Virus record (IMG/VR): IMGVR_UViG_3300025127_000047
Location: 1-55,716 of that record
Length of the DNA: 55,716 nt
Direction: 5' to 3' (one strand)
From: a virus
Lineage: Duplodnaviria; Caudoviricetes
Shown in pieces: positions 28,631-44,368 of this stretch. The notes under the pieces are model-generated. The model did not search any database, had not been told where the DNA came from, and saw only the letters and a program-made list of their open reading frames with translations. The position numbers were made by a program, and so were the translations under genes. How positions within the stretch are numbered: position 1 is the first letter of the stretch; every line of letters starts with the position of its first letter.

Positions 28631-28634
28631 TATT

Positions 28635-29392: not shown

Positions 29393-29485
29393 AATTACCT
29401 CTTGTCTATTTCATCTTTAATAATTAAGTACATCATTGTTGCCACAATATATATACTACCCACAAATAATAATCCCAATAAAATA

Positions 29486-30042: not shown

Positions 30043-30284
30043 TGTCTTTTCTTGACTGCGTGTAATTGCTCATATTCAACCAATCAATATCATCTTCCTC
30101 TTTTCTACTATCAAAGTAATAGATAAAAGATGCGTAGGTATTTCTCCACATCTTATCTATAAAGTTATCAATTTTTTTTAACAGTTTTATCAATTACATT
30201 CTCCCTCTAAATAAATAGAACAAAGCTTTTAATCTCCATTCAGACAAATATCTAAGGTGTTCAGGTATCTTTCTCTTATCCATA

Positions 30285-30638: not shown

Positions 30639-30639
30639 T

Positions 30640-31311: not shown

Positions 31312-31522
31312 TTTGCATACTCCTTGCTATTTGAATTAAAAGTTTTGTATCAGTAGATACAAATTGGTCAAAACTCATTTGCGTTGTTTTAATAATCGCA
31401 TTTGAATAATCTTGTATTGATACAGTCCTATCATCTTCTATCACAACTTTAATCTGTGATAGGTTTTCTCTTGATAACAACTGCATAAAACCTAAAATCT
31501 TTCTCTCTATTTCATTTACCAT
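31295..31522 (-). CDS. Hypothetical protein
   Basis: Probable start ATG 31522 behind AGGA. Confidence 0.55.
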   Translation of the reverse strand: MVNEIERKILGFMQLLSRENLSQIKVVIEDDRTVSIQDYSNAIIKTTQMSFDQFVSTDTKLLIQIARSMQNEKRS

Positions 31523-31527
31523 AAATA

Positions 31528-32409
31528 TTAATCCTTTAATACTTGTTGATATTGCGGACACCACTCATTAACTTTACAGTAGTTATCCTCACATCTAACT
31601 GACACACCTTGTCTAAATTCTATGTCGTACTCCTCTCCCTTTTTCTTTGCAAACTCTCTAGCTTCTTCTTCGTTTTCAAAAACTTTTAATGCCCTAACAT
31701 TCTTTTTCTTTTTGACAGCGTATGTGTCCTCTCTTTTCCACATCTCATCAAAGCTACACTCAACCATATCTTTTCCATTCATGTAGTCTTGTAAGGCTTC
31801 TTGATGCGTTCTAACCCTATCAGCTACATACTTACTCTGTTCTTCAAAACTCCATAGCTTTATAGGTACAACTACTATCTGTTGTTGTGGATAATTGCTA
31901 TCTCTTTTTGCATTGTTCCTATTCCAATCTCGTAAGAAACAAATAATTTTTAACTCTTTAATTTTTACTTTCTTGTTTGCTTCTACTAGATACGCATAAC
32001 AATTTAATTGTCTCTCCCAATCTAATTTAGGATTCTTTACAGCCCAAACACTCGTAAACTTATAATCCATAATCGTAATAGACCCATCATCTTCTAGCTT
32101 TTGCACATCAATCGCACCTGATATAGTCCAGTCCTCTACATCTACAAACAATCTTTCTTCTACCAAGTGTTCATCATCAGCACCTTTCTCTGTAATGTGA
32201 TGTAATGCACTACCCAAGTTAGCCCAAAAAGTATCAACCACATCTTCAGTGATTCTGTTTTCGTTAATCATTCTTAATACTGATATTTGTGGGGCATCTA
32301 TTAACTGCGTAATACTTCTATGTGAATTGCCCCTAGAATAATCTCTGCTTTCAGCAAGATTAACTAAGGTTTGTGGTAGGTTATATTTGTTTGTTATTGT
32401 GTTCGCCAT
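31528..32409 (-). CDS. PD-(D/E)XK exonuclease (Cas4/RecB-like)
   Basis: LGSALHHI..., EERLF, ISGAIDVQ, IMDYKFT, QLNCY, C..YC....WC. Confidence 0.85.
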   Translation of the reverse strand: MANTITNKYNLPQTLVNLAESRDYSRGNSHRSITQLIDAPQISVLRMINENRITEDVVDTFWANLGSALHHITEKGADDEHLVEERLFVDVEDWTISGAIDVQKLEDDGSITIMDYKFTSVWAVKNPKLDWERQLNCYAYLVEANKKVKIKELKIICFLRDWNRNNAKRDSNYPQQQIVVVPIKLWSFEEQSKYVADRVRTHQEALQDYMNGKDMVECSFDEMWKREDTYAVKKKKNVRALKVFENEEEAREFAKKKGEEYDIEFRQGVSVRCEDNYCKVNEWCPQYQQVLKD

Positions 32410-32645
32410 ACCCTAATACCTAAATCTATTTCTCTTGTAGTAAAAGAAAAACTTTTTGGAAGATGTAGTTTTGTGTAGTTCAATTTGTTTCTAACCTTAT
32501 GAACTTCAGTAGTTCCATCTTCAGGTATAGGGATTACAAAAGACTGTCCAACCTCTAGGCTAGATAATGCAGTAAACAAGGCGTTGTTTCTAGGCTTTCT
32601 AATTATAGGTGGTATAGGAATATTATCTTCTATCTTATAATCCAT
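32394..32645 (-). CDS. Small putative DNA-binding protein (IEDNIPIP...LEVGQSF...GIRVWR)
   Basis: Pattern typical of small phage DNA-binding proteins; first gene of the leftward operon. Confidence 0.6.
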   Translation of the reverse strand: MDYKIEDNIPIPPIIRKPRNNALFTALSSLEVGQSFVIPIPEDGTTEVHKVRNKLNYTKLHLPKSFSFTTREIDLGIRVWRTQ

Positions 32646-32735
32646 AGTATTTTTCTCTCTCTATTTTTTACTTACTGCTTGTTATTATATGAATTTTATT
32701 ATTAAATACAATATGAATTTAAAATTATTTTTTTT

Positions 32736-33005
32736 ATGAGTAAGCTAAAAGAAATTTATTTATCAGTAATTATCCAAGCCATTAGAGATATAGCTAGTAG
32801 CGATAAGAAAAAATATAAAGATGGTATTGACTGGATAGTATCAAAAGAATTTATTGATGTTTGTGGTATCGTAGGTATTCAACCTCATGCCATTAGACAA
32901 TCTTTGTTAGGGTTATTAAACACTTCAAACAAAAAGAAATTATCTGAAGATATTATCTCATCAATATCAGCGACAGTTTGGCAAAGGGAAAATATAACTG
33001 ATTAG
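32736..33005 (+). CDS. Hypothetical protein
   Basis: VI.QAI.D...W....F..VC pattern; ORF track. Confidence 0.6.
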   Translation: MSKLKEIYLSVIIQAIRDIASSDKKKYKDGIDWIVSKEFIDVCGIVGIQPHAIRQSLLGLLNTSNKKKLSEDIISSISATVWQRENITD

Positions 33006-33088
33006 TGTATTACTAGATTAGTAATATACTATATATTTAATATTAGTTATTCACTAGAATAAATAGTATAAACCTAAAAGGAGTAAGT

Positions 33089-34849
33089 ATGCAAATCCAA
33101 GAACATTATATTAATGATGAGTACCTAGATGATGGACAAAATAAAAGAATAACTTGTCCATCTTGTAGTCATTTGCGAAAAAAGAAACACGAAAAGACCC
33201 TCTCTCTTACAAGAGATGGGGATAAAATTTTATATCAATGTTGGCATTGCCAACTATCAGGGGCAGTAAACATGAACAAGCAACCATATAAACCAACAAC
33301 AAAAAAGACAACACCTATTGCTGTATTAAAGACTTCAGAATACGAAAACACAGCAGTAGCTACCAGTAAATTATCTGCAACTGAAAAAAAATTCCTTAAA
33401 TCTAGGGGCATATCAGAGGATACAGCAAAAAAATATGGAATATTATTTGATGAAAGAGGTTTCAATGGCGTTGGTAAAAAACAAGCAATAGGATTTCCAT
33501 ATCATGTAAACGACAAACTTCAAGCAGTGAAATGGAGAAGCATAGATGGAAAAAGTTTTACCCAAGATGGGGCTTCAAGAAGTTTATTTGGTTTTGATAA
33601 ATTAAATATTAACGACTTAATAGTTATTTGTGAAGGGGAGTTAGATGCACTTGCACTTTATGAAGCGGGTATAGATTGTGCTGTATCAGTTCCTAATGGG
33701 GCTGTGATGAAAGTGTCAAATAATAAAATATCTCCTGAAGAAGATAAGAAGTTTAGTTATATATGGGAAGTAGCAGAAAAGCTAGACGCTATTAAAAAAA
33801 TTGTTTTATGTTGTGATAATGATGAAAGCGGTAAAGCTTTAACAGAAGAATTAGCTAGACGAATTGGAAAAAATAAAGTGTTCCTAGCTGAAATGCCTAA
33901 TGGATACAAAGATGCTAATGAATGTTTGTTATCAGGGGGGAAAGAGATACTGCAAAAAGTTATCAATGATGCCAAGCCATATCCTTTATCCTCTTTGTAT
34001 AAGAGTAGTCATTATGAGAACAGTGTTGTTGAATTGTATGACAAGGGTTTTATGACTGGTATTTCTACAGGCTTTGATAATGTAGATGAATTATTTAGGA
34101 TTGCTGGTGGACAATTATCTATTATAACAGGCATACCAAGTTCAGGTAAGTCTGAATTTATAGACCAAATGATGATTAACCTAGCAAGAAATGAAGATTG
34201 GAAGTTTGCTATTTGTAGTTTTGAGAATCCACCTGACTTACATATTGCAAAACTTGTGGAAAAGTATGTGGGTAAATCTTTTTTTAGTGGGGCAACTCAA
34301 CGCATGACAGAAGATGAGAGAGATAACGCACTTAGATTCGTTGAAGAACATTTTTTGTTTATTGATTTTACAGGCGGGGAAAATCCTACAATAGATAGTA
34401 TCCTTGAAAAAGGTATAGGGGCTGTAAGACAGATGGGTTGTAGAGGTATAGTGATAGACCCTTACAACTATATTGATATGGACAGAAGCTTTAGTGAGAC
34501 TGATAGCATATCTCGTATGCTTACTAAAGTTTCCCAGTATGCAAAAGCCCATGATGTTCATGTATTTTTTGTAGCACACCCTATGAAACTTTATCCTGAT
34601 AGCAAAGGTAATATACCAATTCCGACTGGCTATAATATAAGTGGCTCTGCTTCGTGGTTTTCTAAAGCTGATGTAGGCATAACAGTTCATAGAGAAGATA
34701 ATGATATGGTCTCTATAAACTGTTGGAAGTGTAGGTTTAAGTGGATAGGTAAACAAGGACAAACCATGCTAGACTATGATGTACCAACAGGAGTTTATTC
34801 TGATATGACACAAATTGATTTTGATGAAAAGTATGACTTCACATTTTAA
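33089..34849 (+). CDS. Primase-helicase (T7 gp4/Twinkle-like)
   Basis: Zn finger CPSC...CWHC; TOPRIM ICEGELDAL, DNDESG, KDANE; Walker A TGIPSSGKS; IVIDPYN; FVAHP. Confidence 0.93.
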   Translation: MQIQEHYINDEYLDDGQNKRITCPSCSHLRKKKHEKTLSLTRDGDKILYQCWHCQLSGAVNMNKQPYKPTTKKTTPIAVLKTSEYENTAVATSKLSATEKKFLKSRGISEDTAKKYGILFDERGFNGVGKKQAIGFPYHVNDKLQAVKWRSIDGKSFTQDGASRSLFGFDKLNINDLIVICEGELDALALYEAGIDCAVSVPNGAVMKVSNNKISPEEDKKFSYIWEVAEKLDAIKKIVLCCDNDESGKALTEELARRIGKNKVFLAEMPNGYKDANECLLSGGKEILQKVINDAKPYPLSSLYKSSHYENSVVELYDKGFMTGISTGFDNVDELFRIAGGQLSIITGIPSSGKSEFIDQMMINLARNEDWKFAICSFENPPDLHIAKLVEKYVGKSFFSGATQRMTEDERDNALRFVEEHFLFIDFTGGENPTIDSILEKGIGAVRQMGCRGIVIDPYNYIDMDRSFSETDSISRMLTKVSQYAKAHDVHVFFVAHPMKLYPDSKGNIPIPTGYNISGSASWFSKADVGITVHREDNDMVSINCWKCRFKWIGKQGQTMLDYDVPTGVYSDMTQIDFDEKYDFTF

Positions 34850-35345
34850 ATCTACTGACTTAGGTACTAAGTTCTTACATCAACATAGTGTTTTTGTAAT
34901 AGAAGATTTAGGGAAGAAATATTTTAGATGCAGGAATACTACAGAAAATATAATAGATAAGTTATATATTAACTCGTTAATAGATGATAAAGAATATCAT
35001 GCGGGTCAATTTGTTTTGTATGTTTGTTTGCAGTCAGGATTATTAGGACAAGGTGGGATTAACTTATCCCTTGCGGGTAAGTCAACTGATGAAAAGCAAT
35101 CTTCGTATAGATTACTAAAGTCTATGAGATTAAAACAGATTACCAATATGTTTAATAAAGATAAAAAACATTTGGGTAATTTTGTTATTAAAGTGATTAG
35201 TGATAATAAAGAAATCAACAAGCAATCTGATATGGCTCTCTTTAAAAGGGGGCTACACCAAATATCAAATCGCTTGTATCATTCAAGTTTAAACAACGCA
35301 AAAACTACTTGTCATTACGCTGTTCAATCTGTTGTCGAAGCATAA
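34833..35345 (+). CDS. Hypothetical protein
   Basis: ORF overlapping the helicase end; start uncertain. Confidence 0.55.
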   Translation: MTSHFKSTDLGTKFLHQHSVFVIEDLGKKYFRCRNTTENIIDKLYINSLIDDKEYHAGQFVLYVCLQSGLLGQGGINLSLAGKSTDEKQSSYRLLKSMRLKQITNMFNKDKKHLGNFVIKVISDNKEINKQSDMALFKRGLHQISNRLYHSSLNNAKTTCHYAVQSVVEA

Positions 35346-35475
35346 AGATTATTTGTGAAGATAAACTTCTACAATTCTTATCTGCTTCTGCTTGTATTTT
35401 TTTTCGCATATCGTCAGGCATACGAATCGTAAAATAATTTTTACTTACTATTGGTTTTTTAAAAGCTGTTGTCAT
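35305..35475 (-). CDS. Arc-like ribbon-helix-helix repressor (missed by the ORF track)
   Basis: 56 aa, MTTAFKKPIVSKNYFTIRMPDDMRKKIQAEADKNCRSLSSQIIFML..., aligns by eye to Arc F.LR.P......V...A..N.RS..SEI; AGGAG RBS. Confidence 0.85.
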   Translation of the reverse strand: MTTAFKKPIVSKNYFTIRMPDDMRKKIQAEADKNCRSLSSQIIFMLRQQIEQRNDK

Positions 35476-35484
35476 TTTTTACTC

Positions 35485-35655
35485 CTATAATTTATAAGCT
35501 TTATCAATTAATTTATTAGCTTCAAGTCTTAAAAGAAAAACTTCATCTTGCATCTTCTTTAATTTATCTTTAGCCATTCTTAATTTATCTTCTGCTGTTG
35601 CTATATCTGATTGAATTTTATTAATCAGTTCCATTTTTTTTCTATCTTTTATCAT
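35485..35655 (-). CDS. Small coiled-coil protein
   Basis: 56-aa ORF read manually; AAGGAG RBS. Confidence 0.55.
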   Translation of the reverse strand: MIKDRKKMELINKIQSDIATAEDKLRMAKDKLKKMQDEVFLLRLEANKLIDKAYKL

Positions 35656-35658
35656 TAC

Positions 35659-35877
35659 TTACTCCTTATTTTTATTTTTAATTCTTAAAATTCTAGTTTT
35701 TTTATCCCAAGTATATTTAAGTTCTTTACCTTTATACATTCGTTTAAAACTATTTTTTTTAAACACATAATTATTTGTGTCTCCAAGTTCTTCTTTAAAG
35801 ATAATTTTTATTTCATCAATATCATCAACAATATTTTTATCTTCTTCTATTAGTTCAAAAAATTCTTCTATTAACAT
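35659..35877 (-). CDS. Hypothetical protein
   Basis: ORF with AAGGAG RBS. Confidence 0.6.
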   Translation of the reverse strand: MLIEEFFELIEEDKNIVDDIDEIKIIFKEELGDTNNYVFKKNSFKRMYKGKELKYTWDKKTRILRIKNKNKE

Positions 35878-35886
35878 TCTTACTCC

Positions 35887-36069
35887 TTAATATTTATGAT
35901 AGATTTCTTCTGCTATGTGAAATAAGATGTCATCTCTGTCATCATCTTCACACAACCCTAATCTTTTGCTTATGTACTGCACTTCTTCTTCAAGCAATCC
36001 TTTGCTGTCATCTTCCTCAACTTGTTGCATTACTTTTTCAAATGCTTGTTCGTTATGTTGATTACTCAT
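35887..36069 (-). CDS. Small acidic hypothetical protein
   Basis: ORF with GGAG RBS. Confidence 0.6.
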   Translation of the reverse strand: MSNQHNEQAFEKVMQQVEEDDSKGLLEEEVQYISKRLGLCEDDDRDDILFHIAEEIYHKY

Positions 36070-36782
36070 TTATTGTTCTCCTCTAAGTAATAATTTAATA
36101 TCTGTTTTGTATCATTCATATCTCTATAAGTTTGGTCGCCATGCCACACCCATTTAGATATTAACCAGTGTGTATTATCTTTAGGTAATAAAGGACTGTA
36201 TGCGGACACACCAAACGCATCTAGGTTTTTTATAATATCGTCTAACCAAATAGATGAAGCACCATATCCATTGTCATAAGTTCTGCTATCGCATGAATAC
36301 CTAGAATACCTATCTTTTAAAAGTTCTAATTTATTTTCAAAAGATGTAGGAATAGTTCTATCAACATACCAGTATCTTTCGCTGTCTTTTTTTAAAAATC
36401 TTTCCATGTTCATACCATTGCCAAAGTTTCTAATAACAAACCAGTCAGGATTTTTTCTGCCTTTATATTTGTAGTCAGTAAGATTAACAAACCAAACAAC
36501 ATCTGATAAACACCACATCATTTCTTTTATAGCAAAAAAATTTTGATGTATGTATCTGTTCTCTTTAGCTTTTCTTGTTGAATTTGGATACATAAAACTA
36601 GATTTAAGTTTTACTGGATTACCAAGCAAATTTTTTAATTCATCATAAGTACAATTTAAGTATCCACTTCTATTAACCTCATTTATTACAGAAAAATAAG
36701 GACTAAATTTATTCATTGTAAAGTCTGATACATCTTTAAATCCCACGCTGTTATGAGTTTCAATAGGGTATTTATATTCCAT
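36066..36782 (-). CDS. Hypothetical protein
   Basis: 238-aa ORF, translationally coupled. Confidence 0.65.
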   Translation of the reverse strand: MEYKYPIETHNSVGFKDVSDFTMNKFSPYFSVINEVNRSGYLNCTYDELKNLLGNPVKLKSSFMYPNSTRKAKENRYIHQNFFAIKEMMWCLSDVVWFVNLTDYKYKGRKNPDWFVIRNFGNGMNMERFLKKDSERYWYVDRTIPTSFENKLELLKDRYSRYSCDSRTYDNGYGASSIWLDDIIKNLDAFGVSAYSPLLPKDNTHWLISKWVWHGDQTYRDMNDTKQILNYYLEENNK

Positions 36783-37108
36783 TACTTCTCCCAGTTAAAT
36801 TCTTGTTTTAAAGTTTCAACTTCCATCTCTATTATCTCAACGACATCTTCGTTATCTTCTTCTGTCTGCTTGAATACTAGATGTTTAGCTTTAGGTATCT
36901 TCCCGCTTTCATGTCGTTCAGGATATAAAATATCTAAGGCTCTCTGATTAACTTCAACTAAAGTATTAAATGATTTAACTAACATAAAGTCAGCATCACT
37001 TTTTTTCTTTGGTGTTCTATCTATATGCTTATAGATTTCATTACAGGTATTGATATTGGCATCAATCATTTGTCTTAAAAGTTCATTGTTATTATTTACT
37101 AAATACAT
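36782..37108 (-). CDS. Hypothetical protein
   Basis: ORF with AAGGAG RBS. Confidence 0.6.
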   Translation of the reverse strand: MYLVNNNNELLRQMIDANINTCNEIYKHIDRTPKKKSDADFMLVKSFNTLVEVNQRALDILYPERHESGKIPKAKHLVFKQTEEDNEDVVEIIEMEVETLKQEFNWEK

Positions 37109-37110
37109 AA

Positions 37111-37827
37111 TTACTCCTTGTTAAGTATTACTTCGTTAATAGATAAAGGGTTTTCCCACATTAATTTTTTGGATAGCTTTCTATATCTGCTACCCATAAT
37201 TCTATAGTTCATCAAAGTTATTGTTGGGTCAGAATAATCCCAAACTTTGTTAGCATCTAAGACAGAATATCTTTTAATGCTTTCAGGTTTAATCTCTCCA
37301 AGATAACAGGCATTACCTAGATACTCTAAACTGTTAGTATAATCATCTTGAAATTCAGATATATTATCTCTAAAGTATTCAGTTCTAGCTGTCATATCTT
37401 CATGTCCGATAGACATAAAATAATCTTGCCACATAGTATTATTTCTTGTAGCTTGTTCCATAAAATCTTCATCAGGATAAAGATTACAGGCATCAACCTC
37501 TACTTCTAGGACTACAGGCTTTACAAAGCCATCATACATATCATCTTCGCCTATAGAACATATAGCAAAGTAAACTGCATAAGAGTTCGTGAGATACACC
37601 ATATCATTTCTACTGCGTATGGTATGTGTCCAATTACCCTCGCTGTTTCCTCTAGGATATAGCCCATCTTTAAGTATCTTATCCAAGTTATTTGTATTAG
37701 TTCCATGATAAAGAACAACTTTACCTGTGGAATAATCTTCAACTGGATAGTTCAAATCGCAGTCATTTTTTTCTTTCAAAAGATTGTCTGCCATATCTTT
37801 ATATTTTTTTAGTTCTGCTTTGTTCAC
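37111..37827 (-). CDS. ADP-ribosyltransferase-fold protein (H-type, Tpt1/KptA-like)
   Basis: LYHGT....LDKILKDGL.P, VYLT...A..FA, PVVLEV, IKPESI. Confidence 0.7.
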   Translation of the reverse strand: MNKAELKKYKDMADNLLKEKNDCDLNYPVEDYSTGKVVLYHGTNTNNLDKILKDGLYPRGNSEGNWTHTIRSRNDMVYLTNSYAVYFAICSIGEDDMYDGFVKPVVLEVEVDACNLYPDEDFMEQATRNNTMWQDYFMSIGHEDMTARTEYFRDNISEFQDDYTNSLEYLGNACYLGEIKPESIKRYSVLDANKVWDYSDPTITLMNYRIMGSRYRKLSKKLMWENPLSINEVILNKE

Positions 37828-37915
37828 TTTCTTAACTCCTTTTCGTTTATATAAATTGTTGCTATCAATACTATTGAAAGTATTGTGTAGCTAAGTATTT
37901 CTAGCTTAGTCATTC

Positions 37916-38083
37916 TTACTCCTCATCAATAGTAATTATTTTAACTAATACTGCTCTACCACCTTTAAAAAAGTCTTTGTATTTATCTGTATCAAAGTCT
38001 TTTTTTAAGTGTTGCAGTAATTCCATTTCATTATTGCTATCGCTTATAATGTCTTTGTCGCTTATAAGTGCATATTCTTTCAT
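37916..38083 (-). CDS. Small hypothetical protein (MKEYALISDK...)
   Basis: 55-aa ORF read manually; AAGGAG RBS. Confidence 0.5.
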   Translation of the reverse strand: MKEYALISDKDIISDSNNEMELLQHLKKDFDTDKYKDFFKGGRAVLVKIITIDEE

Positions 38084-38128
38084 AATATTTTTTTACTCCT
38101 TATAAATATTAATCTGTTAATAAATAGG

Positions 38129-39325
38129 TTATTCAACATCAACAACCTCTCCAAATTTAAAGTATCTTGATGTTCCAGTAGTAGCCCATATAACAGGATA
38201 GTCAGGCTCACTAAAACTGTCCCAACAATATCCATCAGTGAGATAAACAAGAAAGGCAATGTCATTGTCTAGCTGTTTATCTATATACTTGAATACAGGC
38301 TCATAAGCAGTACCACCACCACAAATATAATCCAACTCAACTTCTTCGCCTTGCGAATAGGTATCATATTTTCTTATACAATCATCACAATAAAGAATTG
38401 TTAGTTCTTCAAAGTTAGCAACAGGGATAATGTTGTTAATCGCATCTTGCATGAAAGCCATATCTTCTTTTGACACACTCCCGCTAATATCAAGAGCAAT
38501 AACACCTTTAGGACTAGGTTTTTTCTCAATAGATGGTAAGTACATATCTTGATATACATATCTTCTATTTGGATTATTAAAGTTATAATCATCACTAGAA
38601 GTTTTATCTAGTATCAAATTGCCTAGCACTTCTTCCCAAGATACTGATTGATGTCTAACCATATCCATAATAGATTTAAAAGCATCTCCGCCTTTACCTA
38701 CGCTTTTGGATACTTGCGTTGCATCAATAACTTTTGCATTTATTTCTTCTTCTAACTTTTGTATTTGTTCTTCGTTAGATACGCCCTCAACTTCTTCAAT
38801 GACTGCATCAATAACTTCTCCAAACATCTTGTCAGCTAAAGATTGTCTATCATCATCTCCGCTATCAGATGTATCATCAGAAGTACTATCTCCGCCATCA
38901 GTGTTAGCATCTTGTTTATCATTTTCTTTATAGACTTCTTTATACACTTTCTCTGTGGTAGAGCCTTTGTATGAGTAGTCAATCAAGCCACCCTCAGGCA
39001 GTGTAAAGCCCTCATCTATTAGAATGTAATTGATTACATAGTCTCCCGCTACATTCCAGTAGAAAGCATCTCTGTCGTTCCTACGCAAATGATGTTTAAA
39101 GACAACATGAAGCACCTCATGGGCTATCACTCCAACTACCTCAAGAAAAGTAATTTTGTGTACAAAATCAGGGTTATAAAATATTCTCTGCCCATCAACC
39201 GCCATAGTGTCAAATTGTTTGCTTTCAACAAACTCTAAATCCATAGCAAGTTTTCCATAGAAAGGATTATTTTTTAACAAGTAAACCCTAGCCTTAGTCA
39301 TTATGTTTTTTGCTTTCTTATCCAT
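38129..39325 (-). CDS. DUF2201-type metallopeptidase + vWA domain protein
   Basis: TMAVDG..IFYNPDF, AHEVLH, WNVAGDY.IN; MIDAS LDISGS, GGGT, YLTDGY. Confidence 0.9.
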   Translation of the reverse strand: MDKKAKNIMTKARVYLLKNNPFYGKLAMDLEFVESKQFDTMAVDGQRIFYNPDFVHKITFLEVVGVIAHEVLHVVFKHHLRRNDRDAFYWNVAGDYVINYILIDEGFTLPEGGLIDYSYKGSTTEKVYKEVYKENDKQDANTDGGDSTSDDTSDSGDDDRQSLADKMFGEVIDAVIEEVEGVSNEEQIQKLEEEINAKVIDATQVSKSVGKGGDAFKSIMDMVRHQSVSWEEVLGNLILDKTSSDDYNFNNPNRRYVYQDMYLPSIEKKPSPKGVIALDISGSVSKEDMAFMQDAINNIIPVANFEELTILYCDDCIRKYDTYSQGEEVELDYICGGGTAYEPVFKYIDKQLDNDIAFLVYLTDGYCWDSFSEPDYPVIWATTGTSRYFKFGEVVDVE

Positions 39326-40206
39326 TAATCAAAGTACCCCACTTTTTTATCTAAATCAGAAACAATATCTTTAGCTGTATCAGATAATTCTTTTGCTAAT
39401 TCTTTATCATCTCTAACTTTATCTGCTGTTAAATCTCTGCTATAGAATGTATCCATAGCTTTTTGATGTACTGCTTGAATACTGGCATCTCCATTGATAT
39501 TCAATGCAGGAAGCACTTCGCAAAGTTCGATAAGCTTTTCAACAGTTTTATCTCTAAATGTTTCTCCGCTATCAATCTTATCTGCAAAGTGTTTGCACAC
39601 ACCTTTAACCTTATCAACAACCGCACCAGTTATCTTTTCAACCTTTGCATCTTCTTCTGCTTTGGCATTAGCTTTCAACTCTGCTATCTCATTAGCAGGT
39701 AAGTTCACTCTAATATCATCACTAGATGGGATAGGTTTCTTGTAAATACTACATTCAAATAAACCCTCTATCTCATCTCTATCAGGGAAGTCAGAAAGAT
39801 TAAATGCAGTACCCAAATCAGTCTTAGCTTCTGCAACAATACTGTCATATTGTTTTACAAAATCTTTTACTAATTTTTCTCTGTCATTTTGATAACCAGT
39901 AAAATCTTTTTCAAACCTATCTTTTAATTCAATAGGTAATAAATAAGTTCCTTGATTATCCCATGCCAAACAATAACCGCTATAACCTGCACCGCTATAG
40001 ATAACATCAGTTCTTATCTTGCCATCAATCTTTTTGATTTCTTTCAAGATAGGACTGTTAGTAAGCTTTTTGTTTACAGTCAGTCTTGTCTCATCAATAG
40101 AATGATTATCAGCTAATTCATCTCTCAATGATTTATCAGTTTTAACACCACTCCACTTTTTTAAATTAAGTTCAATGAGTAATGCTTTATCTCTTAATTG
40201 AGCCAT
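39325..40206 (-). CDS. DUF3150-like protein
   Basis: WSG.K.D, L.WDN.G..LLP, LG..FN..DFP; lies between the MoxR and vWA genes. Confidence 0.65.
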   Translation of the reverse strand: MAQLRDKALLIELNLKKWSGVKTDKSLRDELADNHSIDETRLTVNKKLTNSPILKEIKKIDGKIRTDVIYSGAGYSGYCLAWDNQGTYLLPIELKDRFEKDFTGYQNDREKLVKDFVKQYDSIVAEAKTDLGTAFNLSDFPDRDEIEGLFECSIYKKPIPSSDDIRVNLPANEIAELKANAKAEEDAKVEKITGAVVDKVKGVCKHFADKIDSGETFRDKTVEKLIELCEVLPALNINGDASIQAVHQKAMDTFYSRDLTADKVRDDKELAKELSDTAKDIVSDLDKKVGYFD

Positions 40207-40248
40207 AAGTTCTCCTTAAATATTAATTGGTTAATAGATAAGGGGCTG

Positions 40249-41250
40249 TTAAGCCCCAATATCTTGATATTCAATTTCGTAGTCAATGTACGCTTTTGTT
40301 TTCTTCAAGCCCTCATCTCTAGCAGTAGCCATAGTCATAGCCATAACTAAAAATTCATCTTGAATTTCTTCAGTATCTTTCAAGAAATCATAGTACTTTT
40401 GGATATTGTTCTTGTTCATGTTTTTAGCTAGAACACCAACAATCAGATAAATCACATCAGATTGAAGTTCAATATCTTCAAGCACACTTTCAGGATTTTT
40501 GACTAAGTTATCAACATCAGGTAAGTTTCTGAATCTTCTCACAAATGCTGTAAACTCTGCGGAAATACCCTCTCCAATAGCACCTGCATAAAGTTCTTGC
40601 TCTATGTCGCTATCAGGGTCAGTAGCAAGTAAATTACTTGTATATTCCCATGCTCTAGGCGTTGCATTGACTGAAGCATTTTTATCAAAATGATATAAAT
40701 AATCTTCGCCTTGCCATGAAATAAAAGACAACACTTCTTGTCTTATTCTTCCAGTTTTACCGCCCCACTCAATCCACTCATCATGGCATACATCTAAGTT
40801 CAAATGAACAAATCTGTCTCCAAGAGCAGTATTGACTCTATTTGCACCTGCTTTGTCTTGCACTCTATTACCCGCACTTACAATCACAGTATCTTCAGGC
40901 AATGTGTATTCGCCAAGCTTTCTATCCTTAATCAACTGAAACAATGCGTTTTGCACAGATGGACTGCCTTGCGGAAGTTCATCAAGAAACAACAATGTTT
41001 TAGGCTGTTCATTACTAGGTAAAAATACAGGCGGATTAAAAACAGTTCTTCCATCTTTAACACTAGGTACACCTCTAAGGTCAACAGGGTCAAGTAAGGC
41101 AACCCTTACATCTTCAACCCTGTATCCCAAGTTTTCAGCTACTTTGTGGACAATCTCTGATTTACCCACTCCAACTCCACCCCATATAAAACAGGGCTGT
41201 TTGATAGAGATTAATTTCTCTATCGTTTTTTCTAATTGCTTTGCTTTCAT
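40249..41250 (-). CDS. MoxR-like AAA+ ATPase
   Basis: WGGVGVGKS, DPVDLRGVP, LLFLDEL, SAGNR, DRFVH, TPRAWE; start moved to ATG 41250. Confidence 0.9.
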   Translation of the reverse strand: MKAKQLEKTIEKLISIKQPCFIWGGVGVGKSEIVHKVAENLGYRVEDVRVALLDPVDLRGVPSVKDGRTVFNPPVFLPSNEQPKTLLFLDELPQGSPSVQNALFQLIKDRKLGEYTLPEDTVIVSAGNRVQDKAGANRVNTALGDRFVHLNLDVCHDEWIEWGGKTGRIRQEVLSFISWQGEDYLYHFDKNASVNATPRAWEYTSNLLATDPDSDIEQELYAGAIGEGISAEFTAFVRRFRNLPDVDNLVKNPESVLEDIELQSDVIYLIVGVLAKNMNKNNIQKYYDFLKDTEEIQDEFLVMAMTMATARDEGLKKTKAYIDYEIEYQDIGA

Positions 41251-41258
41251 ATTTACTC

Positions 41259-41402
41259 CTATAAAATTATTAAAGCCACTACAACAAGTACTAAGGCTAT
41301 AGGCTTTAGCACATACCAATTTATTCTAAACAAAAGACTTTCACTGCATTGTTTAGCAAAGTCTTTTTTGAATAGATTCCATTCTTTTTTAAATGTTTCC
41401 AT
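41259..41402 (-). CDS. Small membrane protein (METFKKEW...IALVLVVVALIIL)
   Basis: 47-aa ORF read manually; GGAG RBS; hydrophobic C-terminus. Confidence 0.6.
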   Translation of the reverse strand: METFKKEWNLFKKDFAKQCSESLLFRINWYVLKPIALVLVVVALIIL

Positions 41403-41442
41403 ACTTACTCCAGTAGAAACTAATTAATTTTTCTAAATAAAA

Positions 41443-41497
41443 ATACTGTTTCGTGGTATCTCATTCAGCTACAACTACCAATGTTGTAGGACAGTAT
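41443..41497 (-). ncRNA. Type III hammerhead ribozyme with variant core CUGAAUGA and loop I-loop II pseudoknot
   Basis: AUACUGU-C-CUACAAC-AUUGGUA-GUUGUAG-CUGAAUGA-G-AUACCA-C-GAA-ACAGUAU: 7-bp stem III, GUC site, 7-bp stem I, UGGUA/UACCA pseudoknot. Confidence 0.85.
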
Positions 41498-41597
41498 AAA
41501 AAAAAAGTAAGTACTTACTATCAGGAAAGATAAGGGGCTACAGCCAATATGAATAATAGCTTTTAGGAAAGCCATAGCCCCACATCTTTACAAAAGA

Positions 41598-41825
41598 TTA
41601 ATCAAAGTTAGCAACCCAACTTTGCTTTGTTTTGCCACTAGGAAGCTTTACTGCTTCTGCTTCGATAACATAATCCGCTTCAGCCAATATGTGTATCGTA
41701 TCAAACGATAATGTTTTACCGCCTTGTATTTTCAGGAACATTTTTGCAGTATCACAAACTGGATAATACAAAGTTCTTCCATACACCTTTTCAGGTCTTA
41801 CAATTATTTTAGTTTTTGTTTCCAT
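41598..41825 (-). CDS. Small early protein (VYGRTLYYPVC..AK.F..I.G.KTL)
   Basis: ORF with TAGGAGTAAAT RBS. Confidence 0.65.
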   Translation of the reverse strand: METKTKIIVRPEKVYGRTLYYPVCDTAKMFLKIQGGKTLSFDTIHILAEADYVIEAEAVKLPSGKTKQSWVANFD

Positions 41826-41833
41826 ATTTACTC

Positions 41834-42079
41834 CTATGTAAATTTTTTATCAAGTTGCCATAAATTAAATACTTTCATAGCATCTTCTCTAGTCAATCCT
41901 AGACTTCTTCTATTTAAAAAGAACTCTCTAGGGTCATTTTCGGGTACATCTTCAAGATGTTCGTATGTTGTCATGCCACTAGATAATTCTTCTAATTCTA
42001 GTGTAGACCACGCAATTTGTGATGAACTTGTAATAGTATCATCATTCAGATATTGCTCTGCTGTATATCCATATTTCAT
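41834..42079 (-). CDS. Small early protein
   Basis: ORF with AAGGAGTAAAT RBS. Confidence 0.6.
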   Translation of the reverse strand: MKYGYTAEQYLNDDTITSSSQIAWSTLELEELSSGMTTYEHLEDVPENDPREFFLNRRSLGLTREDAMKVFNLWQLDKKFT

Positions 42080-42081
42080 AT

Positions 42082-42396
42082 TTACTCCTTATTTATTCTT
42101 CCATAGTTATTAGCTTCAAGGCTTTTGACATACGCTATTGTTTCTGCAACCTCATCTGCTGTTTGATAGCTTTGAACATCATCTCCCTTGTATTTTAAAA
42201 ACTTTCCATTTGGTTTAAATATTGCTGTCTCACAATTATTACAGCTATCTAAACTGTGAAGATTGCTTTTAGCTAGAAATTTATTTGAACAATAGTTTAT
42301 TCTGCCAAATTGAATAGATACCTCATATCCATTTTCAAAAGACATATTTAAGCCTAGATAAAGTCCTTCTTTATCATCTTTTCTTATTTTTAACAT
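42082..42396 (-). CDS. Small early protein (F.NGYEVSIQFG..NYCSN)
   Basis: ORF with TAGGAGT RBS. Confidence 0.65.
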   Translation of the reverse strand: MLKIRKDDKEGLYLGLNMSFENGYEVSIQFGRINYCSNKFLAKSNLHSLDSCNNCETAIFKPNGKFLKYKGDDVQSYQTADEVAETIAYVKSLEANNYGRINKE

Positions 42397-42416
42397 ACTT
42401 ACTCCTATAAAAATTT

Positions 42417-42477
42417 ACCTAGAAAGCGAACAAATGTCCGCTTTTTCGCCACCTTTCTGTGTTGCTTATCAATAGGT
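42417..42477 (-). ncRNA. Type I hammerhead ribozyme with C3U/G8A compensatory core
   Basis: ACCUA-UUGAUAA-GC(AA)CAC AGAAAG GUGGC-GAA-AAAGCGGAC AUUU GUUCGCUUU-C-UAGGU; all three stems pair; UUC site. Confidence 0.8.
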
Positions 42478-42480
42478 TTA

Positions 42481-42876
42481 TTAGAAATTTCTATCGTACA
42501 TTTCTTGCGTTTCATATCTATCGTGAACAGGTAGATATTTAGGTATTGGATAACCAACAAATGCTTTTAATTGTTGACAAATATCAAATGGTATTTCAGC
42601 AATTACTCCATTATTCATAGCACCAATTAAATTAGGTCTATCTTCGTTATATGGCTTCAAATGAAAGCCAAATTGTCTTCTATACTCTAATTTATAAAGA
42701 TTTTTATTATTTTTATCTTCTTCAGCAGTAGCACAATATTTGCTAAAAACCAGTTCATCTTTTCTATCTTCATTATTCCAGTCTATTTCTTTTGAAATCA
42801 CTATCTCATCAAGCCCATTGGTATAACCTTTGCTACCATATTTTGATGTAGTGATTGTTGCTGTATTAAAACTCAT
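42481..42876 (-). CDS. Early hypothetical protein
   Basis: ORF with TAGGAGTAAAT RBS; C-terminal LPVHDRYE. Confidence 0.65.
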   Translation of the reverse strand: MSFNTATITTSKYGSKGYTNGLDEIVISKEIDWNNEDRKDELVFSKYCATAEEDKNNKNLYKLEYRRQFGFHLKPYNEDRPNLIGAMNNGVIAEIPFDICQQLKAFVGYPIPKYLPVHDRYETQEMYDRNF

Positions 42877-42909
42877 ATTTACTCCTATAAAAATTAATAT
42901 ATTTACCTA

Positions 42910-43173
42910 TTAAGAAATCCATTTTTGTAAGTTTGGATTATCTTCGCCTTTCATTCCATGATGTTCACAATATAATTTCATTGCACTGTCAATTCTTCTG
43001 TCAACACTACGTTTCAGTTCTTCTCTACTCCAAAAGTGCATTTTCATAGCACCATTCAGCCCCATGTATGAAACACTTTTTACATTACCATTGAATGTTG
43101 TGTCTCTATGCACATTGAAATAAAACCCTCTGTAATTCACAACAAAATCGTTTACTTTAGTTATTTTATTCAT
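42910..43173 (-). CDS. First gene of the early operon, hypothetical
   Basis: Start moved to ATG 43173 behind TAGGAGTAAAT. Confidence 0.6.
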   Translation of the reverse strand: MNKITKVNDFVVNYRGFYFNVHRDTTFNGNVKSVSYMGLNGAMKMHFWSREELKRSVDRRIDSAMKLYCEHHGMKGEDNPNLQKWIS

Positions 43174-43188
43174 ATTTACTCCTAAATA

Positions 43189-43248
43189 AATTATGTTTCT
43201 TGTACCCTTGCGGATACTCATTCAGCTTGTTAATTCAAGGACATAATC
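43189..43248 (-). ncRNA. Type III hammerhead-like ribozyme, variant (CUGAAUGA core, AA insert before GAAA)
   Basis: GAUUAUGU-C-CUUG AAUUAA CAAG-CUGAAUGA-GUAUCC GCAA GGGUAC-AA-GAA-ACAUAAUU. Confidence 0.7.
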
Positions 43249-43279
43249 AAATATTAAATCGTTAATACATAAGAAAAAA

Positions 43280-43725
43280 AACTCACAACAGCATGGGATT
43301 TTCTGACTACACACAACACCTATTAGCCCCTAGAGATAGACTTTGCTACACCATCAGAATTAGCACTTTTACTGCTACGCCCTGTTCCATGTTCTGTGGG
43401 AACTAAAGCCAACTTTAAAAACTCCATCAAGGGTAGAGTCGCCACACTCTCCGCAAGACAGGTATTGAGCCATCAATAGCAACACTGTCAGGACACTGGG
43501 TAAACGCACAAACTTTTGAAAAGCGGATTTTTCGTGATAGGGATTCCCAGTTTACCCTGTTCTGTTTGCTTCCTTGATACCTTGCATTGCTCTAGGCAAC
43601 CCAAATCGTTAGTCTTTATTGCAAAGCCCAACTTCAAGGAAACTAGATGTCTCACTATGGGTGTTTTGGAAAGGGGAGTTAGCTACTGTTTCTTCGCTTT
43701 TTTGGGTCTCATCAATCCCTCAACG
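43280..43725 (-). ncRNA. Candidate large structured non-coding/leader RNA (about 430-450 nt)
   Basis: More than 10 complementary segments in nested multibranch arrangement; ends pair (43295-43300 with 43714-43719); mismatches read as G-U on the minus strand; directly downstream of a promoter. Confidence 0.65.
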
Positions 43726-43731
43726 AAACGA

Positions 43732-43761
43732 ACTATAGTTTATTGTGGGGTATCGTGTCAA
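43732..43761 (-). promoter_or_regulatory. Sigma70-like early promoter TTGACA-N18-TATAGT
   Basis: Perfect -35 (43761-43756), TATAGT -10 (43737-43732), AT-rich upstream tract. Confidence 0.7.
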
Positions 43762-43803
43762 GAAAAAAGTGTAATTATTTTCTACAAATGTTCGTGAACA
43801 TAT

Positions 43804-43833
43804 TTGTTGTTGCTTACGAAGTAAGCGTATAAT
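43804..43833 (+). promoter_or_regulatory. Probable terS promoter: TATAAT at 43828-43833 preceded by the palindrome GCTTAC-GAA-GTAAGC
   Basis: Perfect -10, weak -35; inverted repeat 43812-43826. Confidence 0.4.
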
Positions 43834-43897
43834 AGACCTACAGTGATAGTAAGCACTATCAAAATAATTTTAAATATTAAGGAATTAATAGATAGAT

Positions 43898-44368
43898 ATG
43901 AGCAATAAAGACAGTAATAACAAGGACAATATAACTAACATATCAGGGCTTACTCCAAAGCAAGAGAAGTTCGTTCAAGGTGTCTTATCAGGTATGACAG
44001 CAAGTGAGTCATATCGCAACGCATATAGCACAGAGAACATGAAAGATAGTAGCGTATGGACAGAAGCTTCAAAGCTTATGAGTAGCCCTAAGGTATCCCA
44101 AAGGGTAAAGCAGGGATTGAAGCGAAAGAATGAGTATGCTTCCACTACAGGGCTCTCCCTTAGACAGATGGTACTGGAACAGCTACAAAAGGAAGCACTG
44201 GATACAAATAACAATGAATCATCAAGAATAAGGGCTTTGGAACTACTAGGCAAAGTATCAGAGGTGGCATTATTCACAGAGAGATTAGAAACAACTACAA
44301 GCAATCAATCATCAGATGAGATAAGACTGGAACTAGAACAGAAGATACAGTCAATGTTTAATAAGTAA
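43898..44368 (+). CDS. terS: Terminase small subunit
   Basis: LTPKQEKFV......ASESYRNAY...ASKLM..PKV..., RIRALELLGK. Confidence 0.85.
   Translation: MSNKDSNNKDNITNISGLTPKQEKFVQGVLSGMTASESYRNAYSTENMKDSSVWTEASKLMSSPKVSQRVKQGLKRKNEYASTTGLSLRQMVLEQLQKEALDTNNNESSRIRALELLGKVSEVALFTERLETTTSNQSSDEIRLELEQKIQSMFNK

Follow-up and report, generated by a model that had tools for sequence, protein, structure and literature searches.

To our knowledge, large RNAs (more than 400 nt) with complex, conserved folds are seldom discovered in bacteria or phages. The described ones, among them RNase P RNA, group I and II introns, OLE, GOLLD, ROOL (approximately 580 nt), and HEARO, are ribozymes, protein-RNA machines, or RNA cages. 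The nascent put RNA of phage HK022 (approximately 70 nt) stays with or acts on RNA polymerase and causes processive antitermination, and the pRNA of phi29, which is included in the Rfam library, is produced from an early promoter and multimerizes via complementary loops. GOLLD and ROOL form multimers via kissing loops, some of which are self-complementary (bioRxiv 10.1101/2024.12.08.627333).

In the window (the whole stretch of DNA that was analyzed, 55,716 nt), positions 43288-43725 very probably encode, on the minus strand, a real structured RNA of a new family. It resembles GOLLD and ROOL in being a large phage-encoded noncoding RNA with many helices, pseudoknots, conserved loops, and no known function. 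However, it matches neither of the two Rfam models and is not a member of either family. GOLLD and ROOL are usually found near tRNA genes, whereas the 55.7-kb window contains no tRNA or tmRNA genes according to ARAGORN, and the RNA heads the early operon beside terS. It is also shorter, approximately 440 nt compared with more than 800 nt given for GOLLD in the same preprint (bioRxiv 10.1101/2024.12.08.627333). With HK022 put the RNA shares a place directly behind an early promoter that host RNA polymerase would read, in a phage in which no polymerase of its own was found; it is roughly sixfold larger, with a much more elaborate fold, and is likened to put by position. The likeness to phi29 pRNA, another phage RNA, would be an analogy suggested by the linkage to the terminase genes, whereas no Rfam match was obtained and the phage encodes both terS and terL, which are not so used in phi29-type motors. 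The RNA matches no described family and would head the infection program of relatives of the abundant SAR11 phages.

Genomic context at the head of the leftward operon

The locus contains the following features.

43898-44368, plus strand: terS (phrog_51), divergent from the RNA and its constant neighbor
43732-43761, minus strand: sigma-70-type promoter TTGACA-N18-TATAGT (11/12 match)
43288-43725, minus strand: structured RNA of approximately 438 nt, from the predicted start to the 3' strand of helix P13
43274-43281, minus strand: U tract (U8 in the window)
43190-43247, minus strand: hammerhead-shaped three-way junction, with stem III at 43241-47/43190-96, GUC ending at 43240, stem I at 43226-39, CUGAAUGA at 43218-25, stem II at 43202-17, and AAGAAAC at 43195-201
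42910-43173, minus strand: first open reading frame of the leftward operon, 87 aa, unknown function

The source phage is a marine podovirus related to SAR11 phages of the HTVC023P type. No phage-own RNA polymerase was found among the proteins scanned, and HTVC027P is likewise stated to have none (PMC12753301). The position of the RNA is conserved: in 49 of the 56 loci, terS is found at a distance of 168-225 nt from the 5' end of the RNA, and the remaining 7 loci stop short of terS. The TTGACA promoter that the first-pass annotation had placed upstream of the RNA was recovered on the minus strand at 43761-43732 as the sole 11/12 match within 28000-44000. Judging from its sequence, transcription would start at approximately 43725; with a start at the strongest promoter of the region, the RNA would be the first product of the 15-kb leftward operon. 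Promoter-like sites are present at the same relative place in two relatives (L007 and L010) and absent in a third (L004).

The leftward operon includes small genes of unknown function as well as genes for a MoxR-type ATPase, a VWA-type protein, and recombination proteins. The true start of its first open reading frame is the ATG at 43173 behind GGAG, not 43221. The 87-aa product has no match in Pfam or PHROG, and relatives carry other genes in its place. Compared with clade B of the homologues described below, nucleotide similarity begins inside the RNA and continues through terS and terL, and the small early genes have no nucleotide match in that clade. Compared with clade A, conservation restarts precisely where the hammerhead-shaped element ends, at 43191.

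RNA II of ColE1 primes DNA replication, and a structured transcript at the place where the gene arms diverge could likewise prime or activate replication. The RNA sits at the switch from the minus to the plus gene arm, which coincides with the minimum of the cumulative GC skew, its promoter is strong, and the proteins scanned include a primase-helicase and recombination proteins and no DNA polymerase. Nevertheless, the change of coding strand alone explains the skew minimum, and conserved loops and a pseudoknot are not required of a primer; we assign this reading a very slight probability.

Evidence for a conserved structured RNA

A total of 24 distinct homologues were found in marine viral and metagenome contigs, forming two main clades (A and B) and a small third one, with 61-69% identity between clades. 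An RNAalifold model of 12 sequences has 88 pairs, 32 of them with compensatory change, and 97.6% of its cells are paired (41.5-50.9% with the partners slid). The refined model of all 24 sequences contains 106 base pairs in 19 helices and one covarying pseudoknot. Compensatory changes were observed in 47 of its pairs, compared with 4-13 in slid controls, although many of the compensatory cells trace to few events owing to the narrow diversity of the homologues. The proportion of paired cells (94.6 vs. 40.7-47.7% slid) and the covariation score (0.432 vs. 0.074-0.124) behave similarly. For four measures, the value observed with this model was reached in none of 500 shuffles; a further measure, the number of further standard pair types, was below the shuffles (94 vs. 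103.9) and was reached by 499 of the 500. Compensatory pairs were also found within clade A (23 vs. 0-4 slid) and within clade B (14 vs. 0-6 slid). The absence of covariation, named in the first-pass annotation as a refuting outcome, is therefore contradicted by the 47 compensatory pairs.

The same annotation had deduced the minus-strand orientation from an asymmetry between G-U and C-A pairs, and the homologues agree: only 78.5% of the cells pair in the plus sense, and the minus-sense model has 429 G-U cells against 23 A-C cells. The stretch is also GC-richer, as had been stated (0.42-0.455 over 43300-43699, 0.27-0.33 in the flanks), and carries no coding signal. In the window, all minus-strand open reading frames at the RNA are at most 55 aa long, and the plus strand has one 93-aa frame starting with TTG. 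In all 23 homologues without N, each of the six frames contains at least three stops. Variable columns are distributed 70/76/82 by position modulo 3, and homologues differ by indels of 1, 2, 6, 23, and 24 nt. A conserved DNA element (a pac site or operators) or an unrecognized small protein gene would account for the adjacency to terS wherever the locus reaches it (49/56) and for the conserved palindromes in the promoter region adjoining the RNA. Set against the compensatory changes, the strand-specific G-U excess, the six closed frames, and the presence of the stretch in RNA-library contigs, such readings are strongly disfavored and practically negligible.

The folding energy, proposed as a further check, gave the opposite outcome. 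The whole RNA is no more stable than shuffled controls (z = +0.90 on the minus strand, with equal or better folding in 81 of 100 shuffles, and z = -0.40 on the plus strand), and the values by domain are -0.02 (3' domain), -1.85 (central domain), +0.70, and -1.97. This thermodynamic test is not discriminating; it counts against the RNA without overriding the covariation.

A cmscan of the window against all 4227 families of Rfam 15 produced no match at the gathering score. At E <= 10, only an unrelated miRNA hit was obtained in 42800-44000, and no Rfam 15 match was found in the loci of 12 relatives (143,885 bases). RNase P RNA, tmRNA, group I and II introns, 6S RNA, and riboswitches thus gave no family-model match, and the ARAGORN search for tmRNA was equally negative, in line with the failure of the first-pass annotation to recognize tmRNA, RNase P, or intron motifs. 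Three of the four tests attached to that annotation (covariation, noncoding character, and absence from described families) came out in its favor, whereas stability failed. Its core proposal, a novel large multi-domain RNA that starts the leftward transcript on the minus strand, is upheld by the covariation, the lack of coding signal, and the lack of an Rfam 15 match. The functions it suggested, a GOLLD/ROOL-like role or that of an antitermination or decoy RNA, stand as candidates.

The RNA would fold into a 5' hairpin, a central domain, a pseudoknot tying the central domain to the next one, and a long 3' arm, with the following elements.

43668-43719, minus strand: 5' hairpin, P1 (43716-19/43668-71) and P1a (43708-10/43676-78)
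43534-43655, minus strand: central domain, in which P2 (43652-55/43534-37) encloses P3, P3a, P3b, and P4
43634-43/43568-77, minus strand: helix P3, inside P2
43608-32, minus strand: hairpin P3a of the central domain
43581-605, minus strand: hairpin P3b of the central domain
43591-43595, minus strand: P3b loop CUAGA, candidate partner of UCUAG in the P12 loop (43330-43334)
43555-58/43539-42, minus strand: helix P4, inside P2
43495-43551, minus strand: pseudoknot PK1, P4 loop ACUGGG (43546-51) with CCCAGU (43495-500)
43512-43524, minus strand: hairpin P5, 3/5 pairs with compensatory change
43379-43494, minus strand: domain closed by P6 (43489-94/43379-84)
43480-85/43462-67, minus strand: helix P7 of the P6 domain, which never varies
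43457-61/43424-28, minus strand: helix P9, enclosing P8
43446-50/43435-39, minus strand: helix P8, with conserved loop GU(A/G)GCG
43288-43375, minus strand: 3' domain, comprising P13, P11, and P12
43371-75/43288-92 and 43364-66/43293-95, minus strand: helix P13 of the 3' domain
43353-59/43301-07, minus strand: helix P11 of the 3' domain
43336-46/43313-23, minus strand: helix P12 of the 3' domain, with an invariant 12-nt loop CUCUAGGGGCUA (43324-35)

P1 and P1a are paired in 100% of cells, with compensatory changes in 5 of their 7 pairs, and their loop carries an A-rich insertion of 23-24 nt (43683-43706) in clade A only. All six pairs of PK1 are likewise formed throughout, four of them with compensatory change, and occur as ACUGGG/CCCAGU, ACUGGA/UCCAGU, ACUAGG/CCUAGU, and ACAGAA/UUCUGU. 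Two invariant single strands, CGAAAAAUCCG and UUUGUGCGUUUA, border hairpin P5. Single-sequence MFE folding recovers P2, P3, P3a, and P3b of the central domain (z = -1.85) as well as the 3' domain, for which a covariance model (R1) scores the window at 121.7 bits. Within the P6 domain, alignment columns 250-370 fold differently under the ribosum scoring of RNAalifold, so that the pairing of 43385-43423 and the partner choice for 43379-84 are provisional; a rival partner of 43380-383 taken from the first-pass annotation (43430-33) is also 100% paired. The P3b and P12 loops, both with a palindromic CUAG core, can pair in each of the 24 sequences; however, only one of the five pairs varies at all, and it does so on one side in one sequence, so that the contact is put forward as a proposal from sequence complementarity.

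All 15 helices listed in the first-pass annotation are complementary in the window itself (14 fully and one in 9/10 positions), and about one-third of them proved right. Four were kept and covary in the relatives (43568-577/43634-643, 43608-617/43623-632, 43435-439/43446-450, and 43301-307/43353-359). Approximately six others were displaced by better-covarying alternatives. Thus, 43498-505/43550-557, 43507-512/43531-536, 43457-461/43485-489, 43361-365/43373-377, and 43384-388/43399-403 gave way to pairings with compensatory changes, the alternatives to these five and to the proposed closing helix being P1, PK1, P2, P9, and P13. The closing helix, 43295-300/43714-719, pairs in 94% of cells, yet it fails exactly where P1 covaries (L004, L068, and L002) and is ruled out as a conserved pairing. 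The two long-range pseudoknots suggested earlier (43327-331/43672-676 and 43315-320/43660-665) join invariant or nearly invariant stretches.

The 3' end and the hammerhead-shaped junction

The U tract described in the first-pass annotation is present after the RNA at 43274-43281 and is found as U5-U8 in 10 clade-A sequences. No canonical terminator hairpin was found at the locus, nor any hairpin beside the U tract. The first ribosome-binding site lies approximately 105 nt downstream in clade A and approximately 25 nt after P13 in clade B, where neither the U tract nor the three-way junction is present and the RNA is physically a 5' UTR.

The three-way junction was observed in 13 of 14 clade-A sequences, i.e., in all whose locus reaches it (L075 ends in the U tract). 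Among 10 aligned sequences, compensatory changes occur in stem I (L067) and in stem II (L067, L058, and L002). Like a type III hammerhead, the element has three stems at a junction, GUC before stem I as the NUH cleavage triplet, and CUGA...GA and GAAAC on opposite sides. Unlike the canonical core CUGANGA...GAAA, it has one extra base in CUGAA(U/C)GA and two extra A residues before GAAAC (C-AA-GAAAC). No hammerhead model matched at E <= 10, whether in 42800-44000, in the whole record (RF00008), or in the 81-nt stretch alone. The hammerhead of the first-pass annotation is accordingly retained as a conserved hammerhead-shaped junction, whereas its identification as the known ribozyme is not borne out, given three extra core nucleotides and the lack of a model match; since the junction fails every hammerhead model, self-cleavage is at most putative. 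In a more distant terS relative (L027), four Rfam hammerheads, two of them above the gathering score, lie between genes of the same leftward operon.

Contigs from four marine metatranscriptome runs (three studies) cover 43229-43703; this evidence consists of contigs, from which strand, ends, and level cannot be read, and the libraries may contain DNA. One contig stops at 43280 and continues with an A-rich run in the RNA sense, a weak hint of the RNA 3' end. None of the contigs spans the putative cleavage site at 43240 with 31 nt to each side, and no joints were seen within the contigs. For the flanking genes, we found one contig on 41072-41218 (X1) and several pieces of 34-150 nt (X2) and nothing more, a scarcity that carries no weight, given that the RNA stretch itself had been used to find the runs and that expression cannot be ranked from contigs.

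A catalytic core, for example one that processes the early transcript or another substrate, would fit the size of the RNA, its covarying pseudoknot, and junction nucleotides that stay invariant and unpaired across clades of only 61-69% identity. The self-cleaving ribozymes in the same operon of the relative and the hammerhead-shaped element adjoining the RNA point in the same direction. Nonetheless, there is no match to the ribozyme families of Rfam (RNase P, group I and II introns, small self-cleavers), no candidate reaction or cleavage site was found inside the RNA, and the contigs are without a joint. We consider a ribozyme very unlikely.

A cis-acting leader is a stronger contender, though still rather unlikely in our estimate. 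The nascent RNA would stay with or act on host RNA polymerase (antitermination) or set the passage of the U tract, thereby controlling the whole operon. It begins approximately 6 nt after the predicted start, behind the single strong promoter of the 15-kb operon, and is followed by the U tract in clade A; in clade B it leads directly to the first ribosome-binding site with no 3'-end signal. Its independence from the identity of the first gene fits a leader equally well. On the other hand, terminator-like sites in the operon occur at chance (7 vs. 6.1 in shuffles), so nothing shows a need for antitermination, and no alternative terminator/antiterminator pairing was found. The U tract is not conserved in clade B. 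Moreover, with its 440 nt, at least 14 helices, pseudoknot, and numerous invariant junctions, the RNA goes far beyond the needs of known leaders of this kind.

Proposed function and search for relatives

The best overall explanation, which we hold to have about an even chance of being right, is a noncoding RNA of approximately 440 nt from an undescribed family that is discrete, stable, and released from the leader. Host sigma-70 RNA polymerase would start at approximately 43725, at the strongest promoter of the region, and the product would work as a stable, discrete RNA, not as a leader specific to one gene. Its release in clade A could occur at the U tract, at the hammerhead-shaped junction 50 nt beyond, or at both; in clade B, the task of freeing it from the mRNA would fall to host RNases. 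Once free, the RNA may bind a macromolecule of the host or the phage early in infection, possibly after multimerizing through the two complementary invariant loops. Action in trans as a discrete RNA is a tentative reading, a little on the doubtful side of the balance. If made before any phage protein, such an RNA could be a takeover, anti-defense, or polymerase-modifying device.

A bolder version is distinctly unlikely. It supposes a new class of large self-assembling or catalytic RNA, borne by relatives of the most abundant SAR11 phage group of the ocean, in which the loops CCUAGAG (43590-43596) and CUCUAGG (43329-43335) would link copies to form a ring or cage, in the manner of ROOL, GOLLD, and phi29 pRNA. 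Such an assembly would target a host machine or work together with the neighboring terminase right after infection, and the adjacent element would be a working hammerhead variant cutting the RNA free. The counterparts of the kissing loops of GOLLD and ROOL would be these two invariant complementary loops with their palindromic CUAG core.

Further relatives were sought by several methods, and no cultured phage was found to carry the RNA. A blastn search of 43200-43900 against 50,697 phage records gave no match, and nhmmer found nothing in loci L017-L033 or L035. In HTVC027P, HTVC023P, 023Pt_psg01, and DSL-LC04, the RNA was detected neither by nhmmer (best E 4.9) nor by model R1, which over 20 sources (177,994 bases) found the window and two misplaced 12.4-bit hits (E 1.7). 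Twelve short conserved motifs gave only scattered hits with 1-2 mismatches in the upstream regions of distant relatives. Five new loci (L084-L088) from a second pattern scan of viral contigs were discarded, having no nhmmer match and being protein-coding by eye. A scan of genomes of 185,579 species yielded two hits in Dolichospermum, where R1 finds nothing and the region is coding by eye; they were rejected as chance, the estimated chance expectation being approximately 2 hits for 21 fixed bases.

Literature searches on pelagiphage noncoding RNA, Flavobacterium-1, and marine GOLLD/ROOL returned nothing on this RNA. PMC9599517 makes no mention of noncoding or intergenic RNA, promoters, or the small terminase, and PMC12753301 makes none of noncoding, intergenic, or sRNA. 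As far as these searches and Rfam 15 reach, the RNA appears to be undescribed. Several contigs with the RNA are IMG/VR records, and IMG/VR intergenic regions are also the source of the candidate structured RNAs of Fremin et al. (2023). With lengths of 29-151 nt (PMC10690425), those candidates could cover only fragments of an RNA of approximately 440 nt, and such fragments may already be among them.

In HTVC027P, the equivalent genomic place in the leader is occupied by a different structured RNA, Flavobacterium-1 (RF02976). RF02976 does not match the record of the window at E <= 10, whereas it finds HTVC027P at 90.2 bits, in a 548-nt gap (GC 0.44 vs. 0.36) that separates the leftward genes from the rightward arm and follows a TTGACA promoter. 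The early genes of HTVC027P, the type member, are all of unknown function according to its description (PMC12753301). Taken with the hammerheads in the operon of the relative L027, the different structured RNA of HTVC027P suggests that RNA-level devices may be general in the early gene expression of these phages, where they have possibly been overlooked.

Genomic context and distribution of the RNA

The RNA under study is encoded in a near-complete phage record of 55.7 kb whose terL shares 53-57% identity with the terL of 023Pt_psg01, the Pelagibacter phages HTVC027P and HTVC023P, and DSL-LC04. The locus sits where a leftward and a rightward gene arm part, and its GC content is 0.42-0.455, versus 0.27-0.33 alongside. 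The features of this region are as follows:

43898-44368, plus strand: terS, which opens the rightward arm and is followed by terL, portal, and structural genes
43761-43732, minus strand (leftward): promoter TTGACA-N18-TATAGT, matching 11 of 12 consensus positions
43288-43725, minus strand: the RNA
43190-43247, minus strand: hammerhead-shaped three-way junction between the RNA and the first ORF
42910-43173, minus strand: first leftward ORF, starting at 43173 with GGAG ahead of the start
Leftward arm, minus strand: small ORFs of unknown function, a MoxR-type AAA ATPase, DUF3150, and a DUF2201/VWA protein
Leftward arm, minus strand, further genes: an exonuclease, a Sak-like annealing protein, an HNH protein, and a RusA-like resolvase

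The RNA begins a few bases past this strong host-type promoter, the top promoter-like site within 28000-44000 and the sole 11-of-12 match there. Matches to sigma-70-like promoters are far rarer in this interval than in shuffled sequence (41 versus 76.2, sd 9.3), a deficit suggesting that stray promoters in the leftward arm are selected against. The window proteins scanned included no RNA polymerase or reverse transcriptase. The mechanically called ORF 42910-43221 begins at ATG 43221; this start was rejected in favor of 43173, since homology covers only residues 13-103 or 18-103, a GGAG box is present, and conservation breaks there. The 48 nt upstream of 43173 are part of the hammerhead-shaped element.

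Relatives of terS in IMG/VR provided 33 loci, to which pattern scans added 1 viral and 26 metagenome contigs. Identity of the intergenic stretch is 87-92% in the close clade and 66-70% in the second; the stretch is undetectable in relatives with terS identity of 50% or less. An nhmmer search over 77 loci gave 57 matches (51 near full length), which reduce to 24 distinct sequences in two clades, A and B, the latter taking in a small third group that lacks the 3' insertion. Identity of the RNA is 81-100% inside clade A, 83-100% inside clade B, and 61-69% between them. A divergent terS lies 168-225 nt from the RNA 5' end in 49 of 56 loci, the remaining 7 stopping short. A pattern scan of 185,579 prokaryote species matched only Dolichospermum (n = 2); these matches were dismissed as chance, since approximately 2 are expected by our estimate, the model gives no match, and the region reads as coding.

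Compared with clade B, nucleotide similarity starts within the RNA and extends across terS and terL, with nothing there corresponding to the small early genes. Compared with clade A, the first ORF is swapped and similarity picks up at the very edge of the hammerhead-shaped element, position 43191. These boundaries indicate that the RNA, accompanied in clade A by the element, is passed on together with the promoter region and terminase genes regardless of which gene follows.

Covariation and the refined fold

RNAalifold applied to 12 sequences yielded 88 pairs, of which 32 show compensatory changes, and 97.6% of cells were paired versus 41.5-50.9% after the pair partners had been shifted (slid controls). 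For the refined model, all column pairs were searched for stacked, conserved, covarying runs, and the alignment was then read by eye. The resulting 106 pairs in 19 helices (24 sequences) are paired in 94.6% of 2520 cells, versus 40.7-47.7% in slid controls. Compensatory change was observed in 47 pairs (slid, 4-13) and 361 cells (slid, 27-57), and the covariation score is 0.432 (slid, 0.074-0.124). On four measures, none of 500 shuffles attains what was observed; on the fifth, further pair types, the model has 94, under the 103.9 of the shuffles. Taken clade by clade, compensatory pairs number 23 in A (slid, 0-4) and 14 in B (slid, 0-6); the signal is thus not one ancient split counted repeatedly.

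The model pairs 94.6% of cells in the minus sense versus 78.5% in the plus sense, with 429 G-U against 23 A-C cells, in agreement with the strand originally assigned. Each frame contains at least three stops in all 23 of 23 sequences, variable columns follow no triplet periodicity, and most indels have lengths not divisible by three. That the conserved stretch is not an RNA at all has a very low probability.

The best single feature of the fold is a pseudoknot between the P4 loop (43546-51) and 43495-500, found in four sequence versions, 100% paired, with compensatory changes in 4 of 6 pairs. Homologues have gained or lost optional hairpins, as is typical of structured RNAs: clade A carries an A-rich insertion of 23-24 nt in the P1a loop, and 8 of 10 clade-B sequences have a 24-nt hairpin in P13. 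The unpaired segments CGAAAAAUCCG, GGUGUAGC, GUGUGUAGU, CUCUAGGGGCUAA, and AUCCCAUG are invariant in all 24 sequences, as is GCGUUUA inside UUUGUGCGUUUA, the flank of which is nearly invariant. Domains folded one by one from a single sequence recover the same helices; folding energies of the whole RNA and most of its parts are unremarkable, and the expected excess of stability over shuffled sequence was not observed.

All 15 helices of the first-pass annotation are complementary in the window sequence. Only four are retained and covary:

43568-577/43634-643, minus strand
43608-617/43623-632, minus strand
43435-439/43446-450, minus strand
43301-307/43353-359, minus strand

The 8-bp helix 43498-505/43550-557 was in the wrong register, the true pairing being the pseudoknot; the sequences in which P1 covaries are precisely those that break the closing helix; and the real partner of 43457-461 is 43424-428, not 43485-489. 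The two long-range pseudoknots proposed earlier link invariant or nearly invariant stretches. A rival candidate contact joins CUAGA in the P3b loop to UCUAG in the P12 loop, which are paired in 24 of 24 sequences, 4 of the 5 pairs never varying.

The element downstream of the RNA

Past the end of the RNA, clade A has U5-U8, then an A/U hairpin, then the highly conserved element 43190-43247, present in all 13 sequences that reach it; the 14th, L075, ends in the U tract. Its outline is that of a type III hammerhead (stem III, GUC, stem I, CUGAA(U/C)GA, stem II, AAGAAAC, stem III); stems I and II carry compensatory changes, and the sole variable core base falls at the position of hammerhead N7. 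The core is longer by one base on one side and by two on the opposite side, and Rfam hammerhead models do not report the element even in a search of 81 nt alone. The hammerhead label given to it earlier therefore does not hold, and the element could be a variant or decayed ribozyme. That the large RNA itself acts as a ribozyme is very unlikely. Clade B is devoid of the U tract, the A/U hairpin, and the three-way junction, and its first RBS lies approximately 25 nt past the RNA.

In L027, a terS relative at greater distance, four hammerhead matches fall in the gaps separating consecutive small ORFs of the leftward operon (L027:1144-2556, minus strand): two of type II (42.1 and 37.9 bits, both exceeding the gathering score of 37) and two of type III (41.0 and 34.9 bits, short of 48.5). 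Given their location, the early polycistronic mRNA of L027 is probably cleaved from one gene to the next, and ribozyme processing of this operon can be taken as real in the wider group.

Novelty, proposed role, and equivalent gaps

Rfam 15 gave no match at the gathering score in the window and none on the loci of 12 relatives (143,885 bases); at E<=10 within 42800-44000, the sole match was a chance miRNA outside the RNA. ARAGORN detected neither tRNA nor tmRNA. These negatives place the RNA outside GOLLD, ROOL, RNase P, introns, 6S, riboswitches, and all curated families, and our literature searches returned no report of a noncoding RNA in these phages. A catalogue from IMG/VR that holds 8,495 short candidate RNAs of 29-151 nt (PMC10690425) may include fragments of it. 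By covariation, closed frames, and lack of a family match, the main claim of the first-pass annotation stands: 43288-43725, read on the minus strand, specifies a large structured phage RNA that is real, new, and non-coding.

Contigs on 43229-43703 come from four marine metatranscriptome runs of three studies. Contigs are no proof of transcription, nor of its strand, ends, or level. One of 331 nt, from a small 454 library, ends at 43280 in the U tract and continues into an A-rich run in the RNA sense, a weak hint of a tailed 3' end.

We tentatively read the RNA as a discrete, released molecule, a folded particle that would bind some partner. It would be the first product of infection. In clade A, it would part from the mRNA where transcription terminates in the U tract and/or where the junction is cleaved; in clade B, host RNases would free it. 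The large size, the pseudoknot, and the invariance of the junctions suggest that it adopts a precisely defined shape in three dimensions. The two palindromic loops, which are complementary to each other, could either close the fold or link copies of the RNA, a possible parallel to ROOL and GOLLD, whose copies are joined through loops (bioRxiv 10.1101/2024.12.08.627333). A cis-acting leader working on RNA polymerase is the next most probable reading, though a less likely one; antitermination is slightly disfavored, as nothing we found pointed to terminators that would have to be suppressed. That it serves as a primer or origin RNA is very unlikely, and some probability is assigned to none of these readings.

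The equivalent gap of the cultured phage HTVC027P (L078:1201-1748, minus strand; 548 nt, unannotated, GC 0.44 versus 0.36) also lies behind a TTGACA box, and a second such box precedes gp34. The two adjoining genes (gp33 and gp34) form their own class with high expression from early to middle infection, and the phage depends on host RNA polymerase (PMC12753301). The gap contains a strong, unannotated match to Rfam Flavobacterium-1 RNA (L078:1283-1403, 90.2 bits, gathering score 58.9), which occupies the equivalent genomic place yet is unrelated to the RNA described here. The closest named relative, 023Pt_psg01, has an unannotated 636-nt gap beside terS (L079:916-1551, GC 0.44 versus 0.37), with neither similarity to our RNA nor an Rfam match at E<=0.1.

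The divergent promoter region (43784-43833, plus strand) contains two conserved inverted repeats, ACAAATGTTC..GAACATATTTGT at 43784-43807 and the perfect palindrome GCTTAC-GAA-GTAAGC at 43812-43826, the latter adjoining the TATAAT box ahead of terS. Locus L015, from a relative, has the palindrome altered in both arms with symmetry retained (GCTGCT-GTA-AGCAGC). The palindrome is likely an operator or a hairpin that controls the late arm. The structural arm ends with a single ORF of 2949 aa (19283-28132, plus strand).
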